Assembly: GCA_963787125.1 (NCBI GenBank)
Contig: CAWBBV010000007.1
Coordinates: forward strand, 224,001-288,000
Length of the DNA: 64,000 bases
Reading direction: 5' to 3'
Source: an uncultured delta proteobacterium
GTDB lineage: Bacteria; Desulfobacterota; Desulfuromonadia; Geobacterales; DSM-12255
The notes beneath the pieces were generated by a model, which worked only from the letters and a program-made list of their open reading frames with translations, was not told the origin of the DNA and searched no databases. This document shows, piece after piece, positions 5,322 to 42,391 of the stretch. Numbering within the stretch: position 1 is the first letter of the stretch; each line of letters starts with the position of its first letter. Position numbers and translations under genes: made by a program.

Positions 5322-6062
5322 TTAGTAAGCTGTAAAGCTAGTCCTTTTCCATGAATTTGTTGCTGAACATACATACAAGAAGCCATTCGGAGCATCAAGA
5401 ATCAGGTCACCAACCGTACACGTTGCGTTATTTGCTGGGGCTGCAGGGTGATTTGAAAGACGTAGGCGACCATCACTCGCAATTCTCATGCGTTCAAGTT
5501 TTACATTCTGGTTAGCACCGGTCCAAAAATTGATATTCATTGGAGCATTACCTTGAGAATATGTTCCGGGATCAAGAGTAAAAATTAAGCTAGCACTAGC
5601 AGTATAACCGCCGCTATTTGCTATATCAATATTGCCGTCATATGCTAGTGCGTGGAATGCACCTATATTTGCGCCAGAGCCTGGAACGCCGGGAGCTGCT
5701 TCAGTTCCAGACGCTTTTTTAATATTAATAATTGCAGCAGCTCCACCAGCAGCATACTGACTGATTGTAAGACCACGGTCAAATGGTGCCGTTGGTTCTG
5801 AAATATGTAACGAAGTAAGTGGATTGGTGGTTCCAAATCCGAATTTTTTTGTTGCGGGCTTAAACATGAGGTTTGACGCAGACATTTGACCGTCCGCAGC
5901 AATTGTTAAACCTGGTGTCGTGACAACGCCTGTATCGCTGACCTTAAATACATCCGCTGTTCCACCTGCATTCTTCACAATCAACTTATCCGCACCCATC
6001 GCCGGAACCGCGAGAGCAACAACCGCTGCTGCTGCCAGCATTACTTTACAAATCTTCTTCAT
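5322..6062 (-). CDS. Secreted protein with tail-fibre/beta-rich-like motifs
   Basis: AGGAGG RBS, Sec signal peptide (MKKICKVMLAAAAVVALAVPAMG-A), FGFGTTNP..LHI, ERMRIASDG, C-terminal GDLILD..FLYVCSATNSWKR. Confidence 0.7.
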   Translation of the reverse strand: MKKICKVMLAAAAVVALAVPAMGADKLIVKNAGGTADVFKVSDTGVVTTPGLTIAADGQMSASNLMFKPATKKFGFGTTNPLTSLHISEPTAPFDRGLTISQYAAGGAAAIINIKKASGTEAAPGVPGSGANIGAFHALAYDGNIDIANSGGYTASASLIFTLDPGTYSQGNAPMNINFWTGANQNVKLERMRIASDGRLRLSNHPAAPANNATCTVGDLILDAPNGFLYVCSATNSWKRTSFTAY

Positions 6063-6159
6063 AACCATCCTCCTAGTTTTTGTTAAGAGTTATCGGGCTC
6101 TATTTAGTTTTAACGCCGTTATTTAACAACCATAGCCTTTATTTCACGTAATGCTTGAG

Positions 6160-6188
6160 ACTTTATCAGGAAATTATGCCCAATGCAA
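6160..6188 (-). promoter_or_regulatory. Sigma70-type promoter, copy 1 (upstream of the secreted protein gene)
   Basis: Minus strand TTGCAT-17 bp-TAAAGT with extended -10 TG; both boxes are conserved in the duplicate at 8867-8895. Confidence 0.6.
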
Positions 6189-6313
6189 ATAGCTATTTTT
6201 CAAAGGAAACGTTTAATAGGTCATGGGCTGACGAGAGTATCTTGCATTGTTAATGCCGAAGTGGAGGGGAGGGGGCAGAATCGTTTATGGATGAAACAAA
6301 GTCTTTCTCTTTA

Positions 6314-7063
6314 GCCACGGATGTCACGGATGTTCACGGATAAAACCTTTAGAATCTTCTTGGTTAAAACCTTATTGGTTAGCCTTACATCCGTGTTAAT
6401 CCGTGTAATCCGTGGCAAAGAATTTTTTCTGAAGACCTTTAGCCACGGATGTCACGGATGTTCACGGATAAAACCTTTAGAATCTTCTTGGTTAAAACCT
6501 TATTGGTTAGCCTTACATCCGTGTTAATCCGTGTAATCCGTGGCAAAGAATTTTTTCTGAAGACCTTTAGCCACGGATGTCACGGATGTTCACGGATAAA
6601 ACCTTTAGAATCTTCTTGGTTAAAACCTTATTGGTTGGCCTTACATCGGTGCTAATCCGTGTAATCCGTGGCAAATGCCTTTTTTCTGAAGACCTTTAGC
6701 CACGGATGTCACGGATGTTCACGGATAAAATCTTTAGAATCTTCTTGGTTAAAACCTTATTGGTTGGCCTTACATCGGTGCTAATCCGTGTAATCCGTGG
6801 CAAATGCCTTTTTTATCTGAAAACCTTTAGCCACGGATGTCACGGATGTTCACGGATAAAATCTTTAGAATCTTTTTGGTTAAAACCTTTATTGGTTAGC
6901 CTTACATCCGTGCTAATCCGTGTAATCCGTGGCAGAAAGCCTTAATTCTCTAAATCTTTAGCCACTGATGTCACGGATGTTCACGGATAAAGTCTTTAGA
7001 ATCTTCTTGGTTAAAACCTTCTGGGTTGGCCTTTCATCAGTGTAAATCCGTGTAATCCGTGGC
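6314..7063. repeat. Palindromic repeat array block 1 (6 units, about 128-131 bp period)
   Basis: Unit is GCCACGGATGTCACGGATGTTCACGGAT, an AT-rich loop, then ATCCGTGTTAATCCGTGTAATCCGTGGC. Left arms at about 6314, 6442, 6570, 6699, 6830, 6961. Confidence 0.95.
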
Positions 7064-7079
7064 AGAGAATTTTTTCTGC

Positions 7080-7457
7080 TTATAATACGAATCGTTTAAA
7101 TTCAGCACGTTCACTGCCGAAATTTACCAAGAGGCCAACCTGGATTCCAGTGGCTTTCAAGTAGTTTATCAACTGTGCCTGATGTACCGGCTTCAGGGAA
7201 TCCACTGCCTTCAACTCAACGATAACCTGATTCTCAACCAGAATATCTGGATAATAAAGCCCAACATCTTCACCCTTGTAGATGACATGCAGCTCCTTCT
7301 GCTCTTCCAACAGCGAGCCTCTCAGTTGAAGCTCCCTTACCAGTGCCTTCTGATAGACTGCTTCAAGAAAGCCCGGTCCGAGAATAGAATGAACCTCATA
7401 AATTGCTCCGATTATCCTGGAGGTAAGCTCTTCAGCGATCAAATTCGTGCAATTCAT
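7080..7457 (-). CDS. GxxExxY protein (PD-(D/E)XK nuclease-like)
   Basis: LGPGFLEAVY, PDILVENQVIVELKA, QLINYLKATG..GLLVNFG. Confidence 0.92.
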   Translation of the reverse strand: MNCTNLIAEELTSRIIGAIYEVHSILGPGFLEAVYQKALVRELQLRGSLLEEQKELHVIYKGEDVGLYYPDILVENQVIVELKAVDSLKPVHQAQLINYLKATGIQVGLLVNFGSERAEFKRFVL

Positions 7458-7484
7458 TGAATAAACCTCTTCTTAAAACCCTTA

Positions 7485-8037
7485 GCCACGGATGTCACGG
7501 ATTAACACGGATAAAGTCTTTAGAATCTTCTTGGTTAAAACCTTATTGGTTAGCCTTTCATCAGTGTAAATCCGTGTAATCCGTGGCAAAAAAGCCTTTG
7601 ACTAAAAATCCTTAGCCACGGATGTCACGGATTAACACGGATAAAACCTTTTGAAATCTTTTTTTGGTTAAACACTTTATATTCTGTTTTTCATCGGTGT
7701 AAATCCGTGTAATCCGTGGATAAAGGCCTTTGACTTAAAACCCTTGGCCACGGATGTCACGGATGAACACGGAAAGAACCTTTTGACATCTTTTTTTGGT
7801 TAAACACTTTAGATTCTGTTTTTCATCGGTGTAAATCCGTGTAATCCGTGGATAAAGGCCTTTGACTTAAAACCCTTGGCCACGGATGTCACGGATGAAC
7901 ACGGAAAGAACCTTTTGACATCTTTTTTTGGTTAAACACTTTAGATTCTGTTTTTCATCGGTGTAAATCCGTGTAATCCGTGGTTAAAAGCATTTGACTT
8001 AAAACACTTATCCACGTATGTCACGGATGCCCACGGT
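7485..8037. repeat. Palindromic repeat array block 2 (4 units plus a lone left arm abutting the HEPN stop)
   Basis: Left arms at about 7485, 7615, 7747, 7879; half unit TCCACGTATGTCACGGATGCCCACGG at about 8011. Confidence 0.93.
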
Positions 8038-8039
8038 GA

Positions 8040-8510
8040 TCACAAGATTGTTTCATCAGTTGTGAACTTTCCGGCATAAGTGTTGATTCGCTTCACACTA
8101 TCGAAAAGAAGTGGCGTCGTCCGCAGACTCTCGATATAAATGTTCGTGATATCTTCCTCTGACTCGGCGTATTCATGGGCAATTCTGTTTCGAAGCATGC
8201 GAATCTGAGCAAACTGTTGTGCTGATGAGATGAGCCCTTTTTTCTCGGCACGATTTATGGCATCACGGATGGTTTCAGGAGCTTCATCAAGATCCAGAAT
8301 ATCAATCAGCTTGATAGCCTGTTTAATAATAAGGTCGGACAACCTGGCATACTTGGAGGTCAATGATTCGAAGCGGTCTTGCTCCTCCCGATCATATTCA
8401 CCTTTGATTCCGATCGAGAGGCACTTTTCATATGAGTATTCCAGCGTTTCATCTGCTTTACGCAATCGGTCCAGCAGCTCTTTTAAATATGCGCTCTCTT
8501 CTTTTCCCAT
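8040..8510 (-). CDS. HEPN-domain RNase toxin (HepT-like)
   Basis: RNRIAHEY matches the RX4HXY motif; overlaps the upstream MNT gene. Confidence 0.82.
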   Translation of the reverse strand: MGKEESAYLKELLDRLRKADETLEYSYEKCLSIGIKGEYDREEQDRFESLTSKYARLSDLIIKQAIKLIDILDLDEAPETIRDAINRAEKKGLISSAQQFAQIRMLRNRIAHEYAESEEDITNIYIESLRTTPLLFDSVKRINTYAGKFTTDETIL

Positions 8511-8794
8511 AATTTAACCGTCCCCTTTGCCAGCACCATCCGGACAAAAGTATTTTTAAGTTCACTTCCGGTCAGAACAAAGTCAAGCTTCTGCTCGTCA
8601 ATATGTTGAAACAACTCCTCCTCTATAAGGAAAAGCATGTTTTTATCCACGACATCCGATTTAATAAGGATATCGATATCGCCCCCCCTTTTGGAGTCAT
8701 CGAGCCTTGATCCGAACAGGTGAATTTCGGCGTTTTCATCGAACATGAGGATTGCGTTTATTATAGCATGCCGCTCTTCTTCAGAAATCCTCAT
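8483..8794 (-). CDS. Minimal nucleotidyltransferase antitoxin (MntA-like)
   Basis: LFGSRLDDSKRGGDIDILI (GSx10DxD), 103 aa. Confidence 0.85.
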   Translation of the reverse strand: MRISEEERHAIINAILMFDENAEIHLFGSRLDDSKRGGDIDILIKSDVVDKNMLFLIEEELFQHIDEQKLDFVLTGSELKNTFVRMVLAKGTVKLWEKKRAHI

Positions 8795-8848
8795 TTAATT
8801 GCCCCTTGCTGTAAATACTTTTTGGGTTTAAAACCTTCTCGCATTGCC

Positions 8849-9010
8849 TTTCACGTAATGCTTAAAACTTTATCAGGAAAATTCACCCGATGCAAATAGC
8901 GATTTTATCAAAGGAAACGTTTAATAGGTCATGGGCTGACGAGAGTATCTGGCATTGTTAATGCCGAAGTGTGGGGGGATCGTTTATGGAAAAACAAGTC
9001 TTTCTTTTTA
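8849..9010 (-). repeat. Direct duplicate of 6142-6313, including sigma70 promoter copy 2 (8867-8895)
   Basis: Shared TTCACGTAATGCTT...CAAAGGAAACGTTTAATAGGTCATGGGCTGACGAGAGTATCT...TTGTTAATGCCGAAGTG. Confidence 0.9.
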
Positions 9011-9770
9011 GCCACGGATGTCACGGATGAACACGGATAAAACCTTTTGAAATCTTTTTTTGGTTAAACACTTTAGATTTTGTTTTTCATCGGTGTAAAT
9101 CCGTGTAATCCGTGGCTAAAGGCCTTTGCCTTAAAACCCTTGGCCACGGATGTCACGGATGTTCACGGATAAAATCCCTATAATCTTCTTGGGGTAAACC
9201 TTCTTTGGTTAGCCTTTCATCAGTGTTAATCCGTGTAATCCGTGGCAAAGGCTTTTTTTCTGAAAACTCTTGGCCACGGATGTCACGGATGAACACGGAT
9301 AGAACCTTTTGAAATCTTTTTTTGGTTAAACACTTTAGATTTTGTTTTTCATCGGTGTAAATCCGTGTAATCCGTGGCTAAAGGCCTTTGACTTAAAACC
9401 CTTGGCCACGGATGTCACGGATGTTCACGGATAAAATCCCTATAATCTTCTTGGGGTAAACCTTCTTTGGTTAGCCTTTCATCAGTGTAAATCCGTGTAA
9501 TCCGTGGCAAATGCTTTTTTTCTGAAAACTCTTGGCCACGGATGTCACGGATGAACACGGATAGAACCTTTTGACATCTTTTTTTGGTTAAACACTTTAG
9601 ATTTTGTTTTTCATCGGTGTAAATCCGTGTAATCCGTGGCTAAAGGCCTTTGACTTAAAACCCTTGGCCACGGATGTCACGGATGTTCACGGATAAAATC
9701 TTTACAATCTTCTTGGGGTAAACCTTTTTCGTTTAGCCTTTCATCCGTGTTAATCCGTGTAATCCGTGGC
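9011..9770. repeat. Palindromic repeat array block 3 (6 units, alternating A/B loops, 262 bp dimer period)
   Basis: Left arms at about 9011, 9143, 9273, 9405, 9535, 9667. Confidence 0.95.
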
Positions 9771-9795
9771 AGAAAGCTTTTCACGTTGCTGTTCC

Positions 9796-11100
9796 TCAAT
9801 CCTTCTTCTGCTTCTCCATTGCATCATCCATAACCTTATAGGCACAGAACTCGCCACACATGGTGCAGGCGCCATGGTCGGCAACCCCAGATTCTGCACG
9901 GAGCTGACGGGCTTTATCCGGGTCGAGCGCCAGGGCGAACTGCCCCTCCCAGTCCAGTTTTTTGCGGCATTTGGCCATGGCGATGTCCTTGTCGATGGCG
10001 CCTTTCACCCCTTTGACGATATCGCCGGCGTGGGCGGCAATGCGGGTGGCGATGACGCCGTCGCGGACATCCTGGACTGACGGGAGTTTCAGGTGTTCGG
10101 CCGGAGTGACATAACAGAGGAAGTCAGCGCCTTCTGCGGCGGCGACTGTGCCGCCGATGGCGCAGGTGATATGGTCGTAGCCGGGGGCAATATCGGTTAC
10201 CAGCGGCCCGAGAACATAAAATGGTGCACCGTGGCAGAGGCGTTTCTGAAGGAGAATGTTGGCTTTTATCTGGTTGAGCGGCATATGACCCGGCCCTTCG
10301 ATCATGACCTGGACACCGGCATCCCAGGCCCGTTGGGTGAGTTCTCCCAGAAGGATAAGCTCCTGGATCTGGGCCCGGTCGGTAGCGTCGGCAAGGCAGC
10401 CGGGACGGAAACCGTCGCCGAGGGAGAGGGTCAGGTCGTACTCCCTGGATATCTGCAGCAGTTTGTCGAAATGCTCGAAGAGCGGGTTTTCAGCGTTATT
10501 GTAGGCCATCCATTCGATGGTGAAGGCGCCGCCACGGGAGACAACATCCATGATCCGCCCTTCGTTCTTCATCCGCTCGACGGTGCTTCTGGTAACTCCG
10601 CAATGCACGGTGATGAAGTCGACACCGTCTTCGGCGTGTTTGATGATGCCGGCGAACATCTCTTCAACCGTCATATCTACAATCGCTTTCTTGCGCACTC
10701 TTACCGCATCGAGGGCCGCCTGGTACAGTGGTACCGAGCCGATGCAGGCGCTTGTTTCGGCAATGATGGCACGGCGGATTTCGTCGACAGGGCCGCCGGT
10801 AGAAAGATCCATGATGGCGTCAGCGCCGTATTTAACAGCAGTCCGCGCTTTTTCAAGCTCTTTGGAGATGTCGAGATCGTCCGAAGATGAGCCGATGTTG
10901 GCATTCACCTTGGTGCGCAGCCCCTTGCCGACCGGGAGCGGCATGCCGTTCAGATGTTTGATGTTGTGGCAGATAATGATATTGCCGGCGGCAATTCCGT
11001 CACGGATAAATTCAGGTGACACCCCTTCAGAGGCGGCGGCAGCGGTCATTTTCTCGGTTATTATTCCTTTGCGGGCGTAGTCAAGCTGGGTTGTTGCCAT
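9796..11100 (-). CDS. thiC: Phosphomethylpyrimidine synthase
   Basis: [32 protein letters not shown] motifs. Confidence 0.97.
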
Positions 11101-11111
11101 TTAATTGCTCC

Positions 11112-12545
11112 TTAAAGTTTCATTTCGTCTGCAGCTGCATAGTGATTCACCGGTCCATGGCCGTTGCCTAGCGGCTCTGCCAGCCGGATTGCTGCGGTTA
11201 TGAACTGTTTGGCTTTCCGGATTGCTTCAGGCAGAGGATATCCCTGAGCTAAAAAAGAGGCGATTGCTGCCGAAAGGGTACAGCCGGTGCCGTGGGTGTT
11301 GGTGGAGATGATTCTTGGTGAGGCAAAGCGGCTGAAAGTGTTGCCGTCAAATAACAGGTCGACAGACTCTTCGCCGGCAGCATGCCCCCCCTTTATCAGG
11401 ATATTGCGTGCTCCCGCCTTATGCAGCGCTCTGGCCGCTGCCTGCATATCCGCAGTAGTGTTGATGCTGATGCCGGTCAGCGCTTCTGCTTCCGGGATGT
11501 TCGGGGTCAGAAGGTACGTCAACGGCAGCAGCCGCTCTTTCAGGGAGGTGACAGCTTCCCTGCCGATCAGGTCTGCGCCCCCCTTGGCAATCATGACCGG
11601 ATCAACGACCAGCAGCTTCTTGTTATAAAAGGAGAGCCTGTCAACAATGACATTGATAATAGCGGCAGAAAAAAGCATGCCGGTCTTTACCACGTCAATC
11701 GGGATGTCTGAGAGGACCGCCTCCAGCTGCGCGGCGACAAACTCCGGCGGAGTCGGCTGAATACCGCTGACGCCGAGACTGTTCTGTGCAGTCAGCGCTG
11801 TGATGACCGATGCGCCGTAGCTCCCCAAAAGGGTTATGGTCTTTAAGTCTGCCTGGATCCCGGCGCCGCCGCCGGAATCACTCCCTGCTATTGTGAGGAC
11901 CGAACCCTTAGGATAGCGCCGGTTGCGGTTGAAGAGCAGCTGCAGTTCTGCCGCGGCAATTGCCGGTTCAAGGTGGGACATGACCGCCGAGATCACCGCG
12001 ATTGCGTCCGCGCCGGCAGCAATGACTGCTGCGGCGTTATCCCGCTCTAGCCCGCCGATGGCGACAATCGGCAGCGTCACTACGGCTCTGGTCCCGGCAA
12101 GCAGCTCAACCCCGGCGAGATGTTTTATCGCTTTACTCGCTGTCGGGAAGATGGCGCCAAAGCCGATATAGTCAGCTCCTGCTGCCTCGGCTTGTGCAGC
12201 CTCTTCCGGGGTGTGAGTCGAAATGCCGATAAGCTTGTCATTGCCGAGAAGCTGCCGCGCCGCCGCAGGGTCGCCGTCCTCCTGGCCGAGATGGACACCG
12301 TCGGCGTTCAGCTCAAGTGCCAGCAGCGGCTCGTCATTGACGATGAAAAGAACTCCGGCTGTGCGGCATAATGTTGCCAGCTCTCGCCCCAGCCGCAGCT
12401 TAGCGGCGCTGTCCAGTTCCTTGGCGCGGAACTGGAGCGCACACGCAGATGGCAACGCCTCGCTGACACGCGCCAGCAAGTTTTCCTTGTCATCGGTGAT
12501 AAGGTAAAGCCCTTTAAGCTGCGCTGTTTTGCTGACTTGCCTCAA
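11112..12545 (-). CDS. thiDE: Bifunctional thiamine-phosphate synthase / HMP(-P) kinase (ThiE-ThiD fusion)
   Basis: ADGVHLGQED (ThiE) then VLTIAGSDSGGGAGIQADLKT and THGTGC (ThiD). Start placed at TTG 12545 after a GGGAG RBS, because the track start lies upstream of the terminator. Confidence 0.92.
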   Translation of the reverse strand: MRQVSKTAQLKGLYLITDDKENLLARVSEALPSACALQFRAKELDSAAKLRLGRELATLCRTAGVLFIVNDEPLLALELNADGVHLGQEDGDPAAARQLLGNDKLIGISTHTPEEAAQAEAAGADYIGFGAIFPTASKAIKHLAGVELLAGTRAVVTLPIVAIGGLERDNAAAVIAAGADAIAVISAVMSHLEPAIAAAELQLLFNRNRRYPKGSVLTIAGSDSGGGAGIQADLKTITLLGSYGASVITALTAQNSLGVSGIQPTPPEFVAAQLEAVLSDIPIDVVKTGMLFSAAIINVIVDRLSFYNKKLLVVDPVMIAKGGADLIGREAVTSLKERLLPLTYLLTPNIPEAEALTGISINTTADMQAAARALHKAGARNILIKGGHAAGEESVDLLFDGNTFSRFASPRIISTNTHGTGCTLSAAIASFLAQGYPLPEAIRKAKQFITAAIRLAEPLGNGHGPVNHYAAADEMKL

Positions 12546-12592: not shown

Positions 12593-12621
12593 CCAGAGAG
12601 ATGAGTATCAATAGGTCATTT

Positions 12622-12846
12622 CTGGCCGCTTCCCTACGCCGGCGTTACCCGGATCAGGTGATAGGGGTTCAAGGGGTTAGTTCCAATTCCAAATCAAAGC
12701 GGCATCTTCGTTGGCTCGTCTTCGGCTCCTCAACGTACGATTAGTACGCCTCGTCGCCTCAATCCTCGCCGCCTTGATGTCATCTTTGATTTACAACCGG
12801 AATAAGACATCCCTCATCTCAGCCCTGACAGGCTCCCCCAGCTGGC
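12622..12846 (-). ncRNA. TPP riboswitch with a large internal hairpin insertion
   Basis: Minus strand GGGGGAGCC..GGCTGAGA ... ACCCCTATCACCTGATCCGGGTAACGCCGGCGTAGGGAAG, upstream of thiDE-thiC. Confidence 0.88.
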
Positions 12847-13007
12847 ATATTGTGCGACAAAGTAGAGTAAAACGGCCAGAAAGTCAATTGCTTTGAGATT
12901 TAAGGGCGATATTGATTCATGCTTTACAGGCTCAGTTGTGAATGGTAAAAACTTGAGCGTATTTAACTCCATAGCTGTTGAACGTATTTAAGACTAAAGG
13001 GACTTCA

Positions 13008-30287: not shown

Positions 30288-30363
30288 GCCATCTTAGCTC
30301 AGTTGGTAGAGCAATTGATTCGTAATCAATAGGTCGACGGTTCGACTCCGTTAGATGGCTCCA
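30288..30363 (+). tRNA. tRNA-Thr(CGT)
   Basis: GCCATCT/AGATGGC acceptor stem, anticodon loop TT-CGT-AA, GGTTCGACTCC T arm, encoded CCA. Confidence 0.95.
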
Positions 30364-37713: not shown

Positions 37714-39623
37714 TGAGCGGCGAAGTGCTGAAATTTCTCACTTGCGGCAGTGTCGATGACGGCAAATCAACCTTGATAGGACACCTGCTTTACCTGACGG
37801 GCAATATCCCTGTTGATCAGCTGCAAACTCTTGAGAGTGAAAGCGCCAGAATCGGCACCGCTGGAGGGGCCATGGACTATTCGCTGCTTCTTGACGGCCT
37901 GATGGCTGAGCGGGAGCAGGGGATTACCATAGATGTTGCTTATCGCTATTTCAACGCTTGCGGTCGCAAATTCATTGTTGCTGATACGCCGGGGCATGAA
38001 CAGTACACCCGCAACATGGCGACCGGTGCGTCTCAGTGTGATGCTGCGCTGATATTGGTGGATGTCCAGCAGGGGATCCTCCCCCAGACGCGGCGCCATG
38101 CTCTTATCTGCGGCTTGATGGGGATAACCCGTTTGCTCTTTGTCATCAACAAAATGGATCGTGTTGGCTTTGATGAAGTGGCCTACCGACGGGTGGAGAC
38201 CCAGAAGACAGCACTGCTTGCCGACCTTGAGAGTTTCGGTCTGAACCTTGTCGAATCAGCGGTCATACCGGTTTCCGCCCTGACCGGAGACAATCTGGCA
38301 ACAGTTTCCGCCAACATGGCCTGGTACTCCGGCGCAACGCTTCTTGAATGGCTTGCTGCTGTCGAACCGGGGTCGTGGCGGGATGCTGCAGCGCTCCGCT
38401 TGCCGGTGCAGTATGTCATCAAGGGGCAACGGGGCGGCGAGGGGTGGCAGCATACTGCTGCAGCTGAGCTAAAGAATGCTGTCGGCGGAACTTTTCGTGC
38501 CTATGCCGGCACTGTGACTTCAGGGTCGATTGCCTGCGGCGATGAGCTGATCTCTCTGCCGGCGGGACTGCCGGTAAAAGTCGCTTCAATACTGGCCGGT
38601 GACCGGCAGGTAGAGTCGGCGTCAGCCGGTATGGCTGTTGCGGTGACACTGACGGGGGAACACGATATTGTCAGCGGTGACCTGTTGGTTCCGTTACGAG
38701 AACGGCCTGAGGTTGCCGACCAGTTCAAGGTGCGACTAATCTGGATGGATGAAAGTCCGCTTTTTGCCGGTCGCCAGTACGACCTGCATGGCGCTGCCGG
38801 TGTTGCCAAGGCAGAAATAATGCGGCTGCGCAACCGGATAGAGCCGGAATCACTCCGGCGGCTGGCGACCCACAACCTTGCCAAGAACGATATTGCTGAA
38901 GCCGAAATTCACCTTTCCAGGCCGATCCCCTTCGACCCTTATGCCAAAAATCGCGAAACCGGCGCATTCATCCTTGTCGACCGCCTGACCAATGCCACTG
39001 CCTGCTGCGGCATGATTCTCCATTCACTGCGCAAAGGGGAAAACGTCCACTGGCAGCCGGAAACAGTCAGCCGTCAGACCCGCAGCGGCATCAAGGGGCA
39101 TGCCCCAATGGTTGTCTGGTTTACCGGGCTATCAGGTTCCGGCAAATCAACTGTCGCCAACGCCCTGGAGTCAAGGCTCAATGCCATGGGACGCCATACC
39201 ATGCTCCTGGACGGGGACAATATCCGCCACGGTCTTAACCGCGACCTTGGCTTTACCGAGACTGACCGGATCGAAAACGTCCGCCGCATCGGTGAAGTTG
39301 CCAAGTTGATGACAGATGCCGGCCTGATTGTTATTACAGCATTTATCTCCCCCTTCAGAGCGGAGCGGAATCTGGTTCGGGAGATGCTGCCCGAAGCAGA
39401 ATTCATCGAAATCTTTGTTGATACCCCGCTGGAAATCTGCGAACAGCGAGACCCCAAGGGGCTCTACAAAAAGGCGCGGCTGGGGCAGTTACCCAACTTC
39501 ACCGGCATCAGCTCTCCTTATGAAGCGCCACTCGATCCGGAGCTGGTAGTTGACACCACGACTGTTTCGCTTGAGGAAAGCGTGGAGAGGATACTGCACT
39601 TAATTGAAAGGCAGGGTAGATAG
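37713..39623 (+). CDS. cysNC: Sulfate adenylyltransferase subunit 1 / APS kinase fusion (NodQ-like)
   Basis: [49 protein letters not shown]. Confidence 0.96.
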
Positions 39624-39625
39624 CC

Positions 39626-39710
39626 ATGATTGATTGCCCTAAAATTTCCATTGTCACCCCTCCTTCAATCAGGGGGAGTTCCTGGAAAAGACCATTCTTT
39701 TCGGTAGTTA
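39626..39710 (+). pseudogene. 5' fragment copy 1 of the GT2 gene at 41429
   Basis: [27 protein letters not shown] with one base missing in a C run; similarity ends before the MNT gene. Confidence 0.75.
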
Positions 39711-39738
39711 TTGAATCCGAATTTCGGAGATATACCAT

Positions 39739-40008
39739 ATGGCAATGAACAATGAGCAACTCGAAATAGTTAAAAAAATGGTCATTGAGTATGGCGCAAG
39801 TCGTCTGATCCTTTTTGGTAGCATGCTTGACAATCCGACAGAGGCTAGAGACATCGATCTCGCTTGTGACGGTGTCTCCGGCTGGAAGCTGTTTGAGTTG
39901 GCTGCACGATTGGAAGAAGCGCTACACACGCCACTTGATCTTGTCCCTTTAACACCAGCAAGCAGATTTACCCGATTAATAGAAGAAAGGGGACAACGAT
40001 TACTATGA
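39739..40008 (+). CDS. Minimal nucleotidyltransferase antitoxin
   Basis: LILFGS...RDIDLA...LDLVP, 89 aa. Confidence 0.85.
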   Translation: MAMNNEQLEIVKKMVIEYGASRLILFGSMLDNPTEARDIDLACDGVSGWKLFELAARLEEALHTPLDLVPLTPASRFTRLIEERGQRLL

Positions 40009-40466
40009 CTTCAGCTCAACTGCGAGAAGAGATTGACATTGAAATGGACTGTCTCAGCACATTGGCGCAGGAGATTAACTCGCTACAAAAGGATGTAGAA
40101 GGACGTGAAGCTACTGTCCGGGAAAGGACCGCTGCGGCGGCATTTCTTGCCCAGTTCTATGGAGGGATTGAAAACATACTTAAGCGAATCCATCGTTACT
40201 ATGGACTGGACCTCCCGACAGGTGACACCTGGCACCTTGATTTATTTAGAAGGTTTTGTTCGCCTGCCCATGAATTAATGCCCCTGCTTTTTGAGGCGCA
40301 ACTTGCAATGGAGCTTTCACCTTTCAGGAAGTTTCGTCATGTTGTACACCATGGTTATGGATTTCAGGTTGAGTGGGAAAGGATCATTGCAGGGATTGAG
40401 TCTGTTGAGGGCGTTTTTGCCGCTTTCAGGGTCTCAGTGAACCGATTTGTAGACGATTTAAAGTGA
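40005..40466 (+). CDS. HEPN-domain RNase toxin (HepT-like)
   Basis: [25 protein letters not shown] (RX4HXY); ATGA overlap with the MNT gene. Confidence 0.85.
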
Positions 40467-40473
40467 GGTTGTC

Positions 40474-40614
40474 ATGACTACCCTCCCCAAAATATCCATA
40501 GTTACCCCCTCCTTCAACCAGGGGAAGTTTCTCGAAAAGACCATTCTCTCCGTGCTTGAGCAGGGATACCCCAATCTTGAGTACATCGTCATCGACGGCG
40601 GCAGTAATGTCTAA
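40474..40614 (+). pseudogene. 5' fragment copy 2 (46 codons) of the GT2 gene at 41429
   Basis: [46 protein letters not shown], nearly identical to the N-terminus of 41429-42391. Confidence 0.85.
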
Positions 40615-40650
40615 AGTCATTTTAAGCGCGGAGTTGCAGAGGCATAGAGG

Positions 40651-41049
40651 GTGAGGCGTATGCATTTGAATGAAATTTCCAAATGTATTGTGGATGCAGC
40701 AATTGAAGTTCATAGGAATCTTGGTGGGCCAGGTCTTCTTGAAAATGTTTATGAAGAGGCATTGGCTTGGGAGTTGCTTCAGCGCGGTTTTATAGTTGAA
40801 AGGCAGCTTCTTGTGCCGATATTTTACAAAGGCAATGAACTGGGATCGCCACTTAAGCTTGATTTGTTGATTGAAAAACGCATTATCGTCGAAGTGAAAG
40901 CAACCTCGAATTATAACCCGATATTTGAAGCTCAGATTCTTACCTACCTCCGCATGATGGATCTCAAGGTTGGATTAGTCATCAATTTTGGTGAGAAATA
41001 TGTTAAAGATGGCATCCGGCGGGTGGTAAGCGGACTTATTGAACCGTAA
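40651..41049 (+). CDS. GxxExxY protein (PD-(D/E)XK nuclease-like)
   Basis: GPGLLENVY, LDLLIE..IIVEVKA, QILTYL, GLVINFG; likely start is ATG 40660. Confidence 0.92.
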   Translation: MRRMHLNEISKCIVDAAIEVHRNLGGPGLLENVYEEALAWELLQRGFIVERQLLVPIFYKGNELGSPLKLDLLIEKRIIVEVKATSNYNPIFEAQILTYLRMMDLKVGLVINFGEKYVKDGIRRVVSGLIEP

Positions 41050-41063
41050 ATTCAAAAACAATT

Positions 41064-41446
41064 TTTAACGCAGAGCCGCAGAGGCACAGAGGAAAACAAA
41101 AATCCCAACAATGGGTTTCTATTTACTATGATTATTTGTTTATATAGTGGTTTTCACCGCGTCTCTGCGTCTTGTGTTAAATACAGGTTTTAAAAAGGTG
41201 TCAAGATGGGCGTAGAAGCTATCTGCCAAAAATTTTTATCGTTACGCCGTCCTACGAAATGGTGGCAGTAATGTCTAAAGTCATTTTAAACGCAGAGCCG
41301 CAGAGGCACAGAGGAAAACAAAAATCCCAACAATGGGTTTCTATTTACTATGATTATTTGTTTATTTAGTGGTTTTCTCCGCGTCTCTGCGTCTCTGTGT
41401 TAAATACAGGTTTTAAAAAGGTGTCAAGATGGGCGTAGAAGCTATC
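41064..41446. repeat. Two palindromic units (CGCAGAG family) within an ~160 bp direct duplication, separated by degenerate GT2 5' fragment copy 3 (from 41206)
   Basis: AACGCAGAGCCGCAGAGGCACAGAGG ... CTCCGCGTCTCTGCGTCTCTGTGTT; 41064-41224 matches 41286-41446; lone left arm at 40624-40650. Confidence 0.88.
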
Positions 41447-42391
41447 CTACCCAAAATATCTATAGTTACCCCCTCCTTCAACCAGGGTAAGTTCCTCGAA
41501 AAGACTATCCTCTCCGTGCTGGAGCAGGGATACCCCAATCTTGAATATATAATTATCGACGGCGGCAGTACGGACGAGTCGGTGGATATTATCAAAAAGT
41601 ACGCAGACCGTTTGACTTATTGGGTCAGCGAGCCGGATCGGGGCCAGAGTCACGCCATCAATAAGGGCTTTGAGCGGGCTACGGGGGAGATCTTCGGCTG
41701 GTTGAATTCGGATGACTGGTATCATCCGGGGGCGCTGCAAGCGGTGGCTGAGGCTTTTGCCGCCAATCCTGAGGCCGGGGCGGTGGTTGGGGCTGGGGAG
41801 ATGCTGTTTGAATCAACCAGAGACGTCATCCTGGTTGAACCTTTTTCAGTGAATTTAACGACTTTGTATGGTGCTGTTGACAAGTTTTTCATGCAACCTT
41901 CCTGTTTGTTTACTCACACTGCATGGCTTGAGTGTGGTCCTCTTGATGAAAATTTGCACCTTGCAATGGATCTGGATCTCTGGTTGCGGGTTGCAAAAAA
42001 ATATCGATTTGCTTTGACAGATATGAACCTTTCCACAAGTCTGGTTCATCCTTCAGCAAAAACAAAGGCATTGGCTGCGCAATCTTTAGTAGATGCATGT
42101 CTTGTTATTATGCGACATGGGGGAGTCAATGAAGGTAGAGGACGGCTGGTTAAATTCGTCGAAGAACTGTACGAAACAAGAGACAGACTGATTGCGGCTA
42201 ATGATAATATTGAATTTATAGCCAAGGAAATTGCTGAAATCAATACAGTAAAGTCTGCAAAAGAAAGCTTTGTTGAGAAGCTGCAAGAAGAGTTGGCGGC
42301 GAAAGATGCCCGTTTAACAGCCATGGAAAACTCTTTAAGTTGGAGAATTACAGATCCATTCAGAAAGATAGCGAACAAAATTATGTCCTGA
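41429..42391 (+). CDS. GT2 glycosyltransferase with C-terminal coiled coil
   Basis: [24 protein letters not shown]; tail SLSWRITDPFR. Confidence 0.9.
   Translation: MGVEAILPKISIVTPSFNQGKFLEKTILSVLEQGYPNLEYIIIDGGSTDESVDIIKKYADRLTYWVSEPDRGQSHAINKGFERATGEIFGWLNSDDWYHPGALQAVAEAFAANPEAGAVVGAGEMLFESTRDVILVEPFSVNLTTLYGAVDKFFMQPSCLFTHTAWLECGPLDENLHLAMDLDLWLRVAKKYRFALTDMNLSTSLVHPSAKTKALAAQSLVDACLVIMRHGGVNEGRGRLVKFVEELYETRDRLIAANDNIEFIAKEIAEINTVKSAKESFVEKLQEELAAKDARLTAMENSLSWRITDPFRKIANKIMS

Follow-up and report, generated by a model that had tools for sequence, protein, structure and literature searches.

Two loci in the 64,000-nt stretch of DNA analysed here (the window; positions 224001-288000 of contig C7 in a 4.2-Mb genome of 30 contigs, designated G000) carry in the same order a gene for an MNT-type nucleotidyltransferase, a HEPN gene and a gene of the GxxExxY family, together with palindromic hairpin repeats. 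Both loci are cassette hot spots where glycan clusters begin, and the link between GxxExxY genes and hairpins is strongly supported. With a probability of roughly 0.55, we read the loci as intergenic hot spots filled with two independent selfish modules, a hairpin-armed GxxExxY gene and an ordinary MNT-HEPN toxin-antitoxin (TA) pair, and not as a three-gene system; MNT-HEPN-GxxExxY as a single system is not supported. The gene order at both loci, the hairpin repeats and the duplicated starts of the downstream genes had been described in an original prediction made from the sequence alone and were confirmed; 16 hairpins were counted at locus 1.

Of the six GxxExxY genes in the genome, one contains an in-frame TAG. 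The arms around these genes are composed of two to four 7-nt boxes, which are 8-10 nt apart and stand in inverted orientation on the two sides of the gene. An ungapped flank score of at least 16 was taken as a strong flanking inverted repeat. Four of the six genes reach this score, each with a different arm family, and the remaining two were found by eye to have arms of the same family on both sides. Comparison of 80 GxxExxY loci from many phyla, with 76 testable gene hits (one locus, L057, entered twice), yielded scores of 16 or more at 46 hits, compared to none of 375 shifted controls. The arms of this set are again runs of 7-nt boxes, e.g. CACGGAT, ACAGGAT, CACAGAT and CACGAAT. When the box types were placed on the protein tree (39 of 79 rows labelled, the 40 unlabelled rows left out), 19 changes were counted, while shuffled labels gave a mean of 23.6 and a minimum of 21 (0/500 shuffles with 19 or fewer). 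Arm type appears to follow the clade of the GxxExxY protein. Across this genome and 30 relatives, which are non-independent samples, the number of GxxExxY genes correlates with the number of CRCGGAT arm pairs (Spearman 0.51). These values bear out the earlier view of GxxExxY as a repeat-associated PD-(D/E)XK protein with co-variation of clade and repeat, and its analogy to RAYT and REP sequences can be regarded as a fair functional comparison.

GxxExxY proteins are about 125 aa long. GxxExxY-1 at locus 1 (7080-7457, minus strand) scores 148.7 bits with PF13366 (E 1e-43) and 150.7 bits with TIGR04256 (E 2e-44), and GxxExxY-2 at locus 2 (40651-41049, plus strand) scores 127.2 and 132.8 bits, all above the curated cut-offs of 22 and 35 bits, respectively. 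Residues G29, E32, Y35, E81 and K83 do not vary in an alignment of 84 sequences, with D71 conserved in at least 90%; D71, E81, K83 and the residues of the GxxExxY motif are found in both window proteins. PADLOC and PHROGs searches gave no GxxExxY match. The Pfam entry describes the family merely as a member of the nuclease superfamily, and a 2012 survey gives the function of PDDEXK_3 as 'Unknown'. No publication tying GxxExxY or PDDEXK_3 to repeats was found in a search whose coverage excluded subscription journals; as far as the literature was searched, the link between nuclease and repeat is undescribed. To our knowledge, PD-(D/E)XK proteins of the GxxExxY family are not recognised transposases. 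GxxExxY genes share the orientation of the upstream neighbour at 64 of 73 loci and that of the downstream neighbour at 57 of 64; at 45 of 58 loci, all three genes are co-oriented. The median gaps are 88 and 73 nt, indicating that the gene sits within operons. A TAG as the single and sole stop interrupts three otherwise full-length matches (own C8:18729-19076, G019:C208:14722-15060 and G021:C42:57783-58127). In the C8 copy it occupies a variable position, and the TAG-bearing copies are probably pseudogenes. Matches in public sequencing runs were limited to contigs of sediment metagenomes, with shares of at most 0.10, and no RNA data set was among them.

Hairpins are also found without a gene. 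CACGGAT- and GCGGAT-type hairpins occupy spacers of etf, trp and hdr-type operons. The spacer between etfB and etfA is 179 nt long in this genome and contains a hairpin, compared to at most 10 nt at 12 junctions in ten relatives and the genome's own paralogue. The gene-less hairpins are thus insertions. The elements have features of insertion sequences (IS) and miniature inverted-repeat elements (MITE), namely inverted repeats at the ends, derivatives without the gene and polymorphism of insertion. The etfB region exists in two 94% identical copies, both with hairpins (C27:28699-30499 and C5:138381-139830), one of which lies at a contig end; either the region was duplicated recently or the assembly contains a second strain. 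All six GxxExxY copies of the genome lie between protein-coding genes, and the four outside the two loci stand alone inside housekeeping operons. One of these positions, between the genes for methylmalonyl-CoA mutase and a glyoxalase-type epimerase (own C1:455346-455757), is filled by GxxExxY in eight relatives as well (L133, L137, L138, L140, L145, L150, L153 and L154). The nine genomes span three family-level groups, which suggests a very long persistence at one site.

Locus 1 is located on the minus strand and is bordered by thiC (9796-11100, minus strand), an open reading frame (ORF) that is the last conserved gene ahead of the variable region. Hairpin arms in the window were located by family-specific motif scans. 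In the direction of transcription, thiC is followed by hairpin array 3 (9008-9793) with six CACGGAT-type hairpins, arranged as three 262-nt units with two loop subtypes, and by copy B of the 5' flank of the gene p248 (8849-9007, minus strand), which is homologous to 6142-6308. The MNT-type, antitoxin-like gene of pair 1 (8483-8794, minus strand; PF01909 24.1 bits, cut-off 21; GS...DxD motif) and the HepT-like, toxin-like HEPN gene (8040-8510, minus strand; PF01934 23.8 bits, cut-off 23.5) come next, and then array 2 (7475-8039) with four hairpins and one degenerate copy, GxxExxY-1, array 1 (6309-7079) with six hairpins at a period of 128-131 nt, flank copy A (6142-6308, minus strand) and p248 itself (5322-6068, minus strand). 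GxxExxY-1 has complete hairpins on either side and a flank inverted-repeat score of 23. The arms of a locus 1 hairpin consist of three CACGGAT boxes with two to three unpaired bases between them and enclose a loop of about 45 nt. Two of these hairpins fold at -28.6 and -30.8 kcal/mol, with z-scores of -7.4 (array 1) and -8.4 (array 3), and none of 200 shuffles folded as well. Units 1 and 2 of array 1 are 100% identical, which points to recent tandem amplification. The two flank copies align over about 170 nt, with a mean column identity of 85% across the full 243-column alignment, and their homology extends into the first hairpin, so that the block of MNT-HEPN, array and GxxExxY is bracketed by two copies of flank plus hairpin. 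The flank copy had been labelled a promoter; this label found no support, as no sigma-70-like site was detected in 6142-6269 and scan totals were not above those of shuffles. The gene p248 codes for a 248-aa protein with signal peptide and is the first gene of a Wzt-type glycan export cluster, in which a radical-SAM gene, Wzt, a methyltransferase and a sulfotransferase follow.

Locus 2 lies on the plus strand behind cysNC, which ends at 39623. It begins with fragment A (39626-39738, plus strand), a frameshifted 5' remnant of the family-2 glycosyltransferase gene GT2 immediately 3' of cysNC. The MNT-type gene of pair 2 (39739-40008, plus strand; PF18765 23 bits, under the cut-off of 26.9; GS...DxD motif) and the HEPN gene of the HepT-like_2 type (40005-40466, plus strand; PF20797 85.8 bits, cut-off 27, E 3e-24) follow. 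Fragment B (40474-40625, plus strand) comprises GT2 codons 1-47 and continues into junction sequence and a CAGAG-type left arm up to 40650, directly ahead of GxxExxY-2. Behind this gene, two CAGAG-type hairpins (approximately 41064-41181 and 41286-41404; fold z-score -2.7) belong to a 222-nt tandem unit with GT2 fragment C in between. Fragment C (41173-41223) is 100% identical to 41396-41446, placing hairpin 2 between the copies of a 51-nt perfect direct repeat. The intact GT2 gene (41429-42391, plus strand; PF00535 E 3e-31), whose 5' end is the repeated anchor, is followed by a giant GT4+GT2 gene, so that locus 2 heads glycan genes just as locus 1 does, in agreement with the original prediction. 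The stated divergence of the proteins was likewise found: HEPN1 and HEPN2 share no BLASTP similarity, and MNT1 and MNT2 are 34% identical over 70 aa. Neither locus, therefore, is a duplicate of the other.

In the relatives, p248 homologues are placed after a wzm permease gene, and the content of the slot between the two varies. It is apparently empty in G015, where the p248 counterpart is known from a 75-nt DNA match only. G009 has an 83% identical GxxExxY gene with hairpins and no TA pair, G017 a Phd-PIN pair with an 82% identical GxxExxY gene and hairpins, G007 a GxxExxY gene with a hairpin, and G003 a frameshifted GxxExxY gene. Several small TA-like ORF pairs (not Pfam-scanned) and a hairpin are found in G012, and only hairpins in G008. 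The slot between cysNC and GT2 measures 11 nt in G015, i.e. it is empty, and 1 to 12 kb with varied cassettes in other relatives. In G010 it contains an MNT-HEPN pair alone. In G008 and G016 it spans about 12 kb, with PIN pairs, an IS3 element, ABC genes and GxxExxY genes that are either full or truncated, including 86-89% identical copies of GxxExxY-2. The gene thiC was detected in all 30 relatives with 74-84% DNA identity; its downstream neighbours are non-syntenic, also in relatives of the same genus, and no clean empty site was found there. The check for empty sites which had been proposed thus succeeded for cysNC and GT2 and, apparently, for the locus 1 counterpart in G015, but not for the thiC junction. 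Three genera, represented by G000, G008 and G016 (three copies), share an identical break, 'GT2 ...ATCGACGGCGGNAG | junction + CAGAG arm + GxxExxY'. This identical break at GT2 codon 47 indicates that one element inserted into the GT2 frame and spread along with the GT2 fragment. In G016 as in this genome, a GT2 5' fragment stands ahead of every cassette and the intact GT2 comes last.

Two stretches of G008 were observed in addition. L118 (G008:C24:29000-35217) is a run of small paired TA-like ORFs divided by CACGGAT-type arms, which has the look of a cassette array and contains no GxxExxY gene. In L123 (G008:C138, reverse complement 9743-11411), the GxxExxY-2 orthologue is closely followed by an IS3-family transposase pair (rve, HTH_Tnp_1), which is framed by two near-identical hairpins of the CAGAG type.

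In both TA pairs, the MNT gene is located directly upstream of the HEPN gene and overlaps it, by 28 nt in pair 1 and by 4 nt in pair 2. Both MNT proteins show the motif LFGS...DID, while HEPN1 has RNRIAH and HEPN2 RHVVHH. In this overlap, in the GS...DxD and Rx4H motifs and in the Pfam domain hits, the pairs resemble the type VII TA system MntA-HepT. They differ in that window scores of 24-26 bits are far below the cut-off of 60 bits of the NCBIfam equivalogs NF047751 and NF047752 (HEPN1 24.1, MNT2 25.7 with NF047752; no hit for HEPN2 and MNT1) and in that HEPN2 falls into another Pfam family, PF20797. Except for HEPN2, the domain scores of the MNT and HEPN proteins are weak, and the PADLOC and PHROGs searches gave a weak PDC-S09 match for the MNT genes. 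Two further MNT-HepT pairs with identical Pfam scores were found 4-8 kb before the start of the window (C7:215851-216422 and C7:219811-220382); their distance of 3960 nt and their identical scores point to a duplicated segment. Four of the six MNT-HEPN pairs detected in the genome fall within about 50 kb. Two ORFs of L037, which match HEPN1 and MNT1 in length and were considered as candidate counterparts, turned out to be unrelated.

The neighbourhoods of GxxExxY genes were surveyed in both data sets. Among 120 small ORFs within 2 kb of GxxExxY at the 80 cross-phylum loci, MNT was detected at two loci and HEPN at one of these. In the relatives (53 GxxExxY genes in 30 genomes, 245 neighbouring ORFs, Pfam E ≤ 1e-6, a threshold at which the weak hits seen in the window would themselves go unnoticed), HEPN was found near one of the 53 full-length genes and other TA-type domains at six more loci; glycan neighbours were present at 11 genes and restriction-modification neighbours at five. 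These counts do not support a tie of GxxExxY to MNT-HEPN. Orthologues of pair 1 in G013 and G008 (MNT 53-65% identical) and of pair 2 in G025 and G026 (HEPN 60-62% identical) have neither GxxExxY nor arms within about 4 kb, i.e. the pair occurs without a nearby GxxExxY in 4/4 relatives examined.

We propose the following course of events for the two modules. Module 1 would be a GxxExxY gene between inverted arms, from which gene-less arm-loop-arm copies may have spread in operon spacers; module 2 would be the MNT-HEPN pair, apparently swappable in relatives with Phd-PIN and other pairs. We infer that the GxxExxY nuclease recognises its own arm boxes and cuts or nicks there. Cutting would help the element and its derivatives without a gene to be copied or retained and would render the site recombinogenic, and the hairpins at the loci may have been amplified into tandem arrays by unequal recombination. 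Cassettes would then pile up via Campbell-type integration and excision, in which RecA-type single crossovers take place on the downstream gene's repeated 5' fragments, with a truncated gene start before each cassette and an intact gene behind as the presumed outcome. The GT2 fragments before the cassettes and the position of the locus 1 block between flank copies correspond to the footprint expected when a circle with a gene-start fragment integrates by single crossover and when excision occurs between such repeats. As in Campbell-type insertion-duplication, a truncated start of the downstream gene precedes each cassette and an intact or longer copy stands behind it. Unlike there, the first event at locus 2 was the insertion of the GxxExxY element in the GT2 frame at codon 47, for which homologous recombination alone is insufficient.

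Several observations weigh against this reading. Two of the six GxxExxY genes lie within 700 nt of an MNT module, which has a probability of about 9e-4 under random placement. Some shared preference of insertion must therefore exist, for which the hot spots are the sole explanation offered here. No strong flanking repeat was found for 30 of the 76 cross-phylum genes. The signal on the protein tree is modest, and common descent gives related elements the same label. Thirteen arm pairs and no GxxExxY gene were counted in G028, and GxxExxY genes without arms of the counted type in G024 and G027; G028 is a clear exception to the correlation across the 31 genomes. Comparison of a GxxExxY profile with the sequences of solved structures yielded no match at E ≤ 0.1 (best E 0.39). 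The slot between mutase and epimerase suits long vertical persistence or domestication as well as mobility. This last point leads to a reading that we consider unlikely, yet worth attention, namely that the hairpins act mainly as RNA processing or stabilising stems, while GxxExxY has been resident for long, may have been domesticated and is expressed by read-through, with mobility rare or extinct. The co-orientation with both neighbours at short gaps, the occupied mutase-epimerase slot in eight relatives and here, a recurrent slot between CusB and CusA and the strong stability of the stems are in line with it. Presence and absence differ among close relatives, however, truncated and stop-bearing GxxExxY copies exist, the arms have sequence boxes in common beyond pairing, and the conserved D-E-K triad suggests a DNA nuclease. 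There is also no Rfam family for the hairpins; a scan of the window with Rfam left them unmatched and returned one tRNA, one thiamine pyrophosphate (TPP) riboswitch and no rRNA. Intervening sequences of 23S rRNA can carry an ORF for S23p, a four-helix-bundle protein; the small ORF sits in a long stem, in transcribed orientation, within the host transcription unit. GxxExxY may be compared to them as a small ORF enclosed by a stem and co-oriented in a host unit. It belongs to another protein family, and its six copies in this genome lie between protein-coding genes and not in 23S rRNA helices. In relative L139, a PF05635 gene lies at a distance of 1.8 kb from a GxxExxY gene. Slightly less probable is that GxxExxY and the box-built hairpins form an undescribed, integrase-free gene-capture system, in which breaks at hairpins and their repair would recruit and shuffle foreign cassettes (TA, defence) at the heads of surface-glycan clusters; in function, such a system would parallel integrons, with a PD-(D/E)XK enzyme as the driving component. 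The original prediction went further and joined MNT, HEPN and GxxExxY into one cassette system, with a nuclease that captures cassettes at hairpins and a TA pair that stabilises or defends as an integral part. One genome shows this gene order at two loci whose proteins are unrelated, co-location of GxxExxY and MNT modules is improbable at random, TA-type domains lie near GxxExxY at 7/52 loci in relatives, and the locus 1 block between two copies of the same flank may have arrived as one piece. We nevertheless hold this to be improbable: MNT or HEPN lies within 2 kb at just 2/80 cross-phylum loci and near 1/53 copies in relatives, orthologous GxxExxY genes are accompanied by Phd-PIN or by no TA pair, MNT-HEPN stands alone in the slot of G010 and has no GxxExxY nearby in all four relatives examined for orthologues, and the other four GxxExxY genes of the genome are solitary in housekeeping operons.

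The mobility of the hairpins could also depend on an enzyme acting in trans. In line with the earlier statement that no mobility enzyme is visible, no match to a RAYT or integron integrase was obtained in the window (transposases and reverse transcriptases were not screened), but the genome elsewhere has seven Y1_Tnp genes and two integron integrases. Hairpins of the REP/REPIN type, mobilised in trans by a RAYT-like Y1 transposase with GxxExxY as a passenger or unrelated resident of the loop, would be compatible with the presence of these seven genes, with the intergenic, palindromic and clustered nature of the hairpins, as in REP/BIME, and with the arm pairs retained in G028 without a GxxExxY gene. 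GxxExxY has several features in common with REP/REPIN-RAYT systems: a single small gene is framed by inverted palindromic repeats on which its product presumably acts, there are many gene-less intergenic hairpins, clade and repeat co-vary, and there are signs that elements persist for long at fixed sites. Unlike RAYT, GxxExxY has a PD-(D/E)XK fold and is not an HUH tyrosine enzyme, and its arms consist of two to four short boxes with the period of a helical turn. No Y1 HUH gene flanked by the hairpin family in question was found. Different inverted-repeat families of their own flank four or more of the seven Y1_Tnp genes (scores 19-32.5, compared to 9-13.5 for the remaining three), no CRCGGAT arm pair comes closer than 7.4 kb to any of the seven, and CGGAT-type arms immediately flank two GxxExxY genes, at 43 nt. 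Together with the gene-arm coupling at 46/76 loci in many phyla, this makes mobilisation by RAYT improbable. Three RAYT-like Y1_Tnp genes (C12:217573-218367, C1:404578-405632 and C23:102009-103073) are each framed by their own inverted-repeat family, and one of these families, of the GGGGTCAAGTCTCCAAAT type, is also present on C4 and C9 in the form of palindromes without a gene, so that a classical REPIN-RAYT population coexists with the GxxExxY hairpins. Least credible, in our view, is a reading of the hairpins as integron attC sites, with the loci as integrase-less clusters served in trans by the two integron integrases, which match TIGR02249 with 341 and 338 bits (cut-off 265). Hairpins of about 110-130 nt between small promoter-less cassettes stacked at one spot, TA-rich content with many TA pairs and the look of a cassette array in G008 resemble integron cassettes. 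The CACGGAT and CAGAG hairpins lack the ends RYYYAAC and GTTRRRY, though, while the attC sites on contig C4 are classical in this respect and quite different in sequence. No integrase is adjacent, as both lie on other contigs (C4:161732-162667, L120, and C23:106715-107650, L121), and the cassettes of locus 2 are bounded by gene-start fragments. Single hairpins lie within housekeeping operons, far from arrays, and the same arm build surrounds GxxExxY in many phyla, the genomes of which were not screened for integrons. The C4 integrase gene heads a classical attC array with small cassettes; an ORF inside this array was judged by eye to be reverse transcriptase-like and may resemble the reverse transcriptases of group II introns.

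GxxExxY is very widespread and has no assigned function. The link to a cognate hairpin gives it a concrete and testable role as the nuclease that accompanies a large class of palindromes in intergenic regions; these palindromes also cause spurious ORFs and assembly breaks. If the nuclease indeed acts on the hairpins, it would constitute a new type of element-encoded enzyme beside RAYTs, integrases and homing endonucleases. The slot series from empty via a single cassette to 12 kb shows how TA and accessory genes pile up at the borders of glycan clusters through gene-start fragments, which matters when variation in surface-polysaccharide loci is interpreted.

Some further features of the window were recorded. 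For p248, no Pfam family was found; its last 50 residues show a weak match to the C-terminus of the phage tail protein family phrog_17312 (E 1.4e-4). Homologues of p248 diverge fast (30-45% identity), compared to 82-83% for the adjoining GxxExxY proteins. At about 14212 of the window (C7:238212), there is a lone arm-like match, with two mismatches, to the box family around the GxxExxY gene of contig C6. The TPP riboswitch (12614-12849, minus strand) lies ahead of a thiamine operon, the last gene of which is thiC, and the tRNA gene is located at 30288-30360 (plus strand) in the middle of the glycan region.

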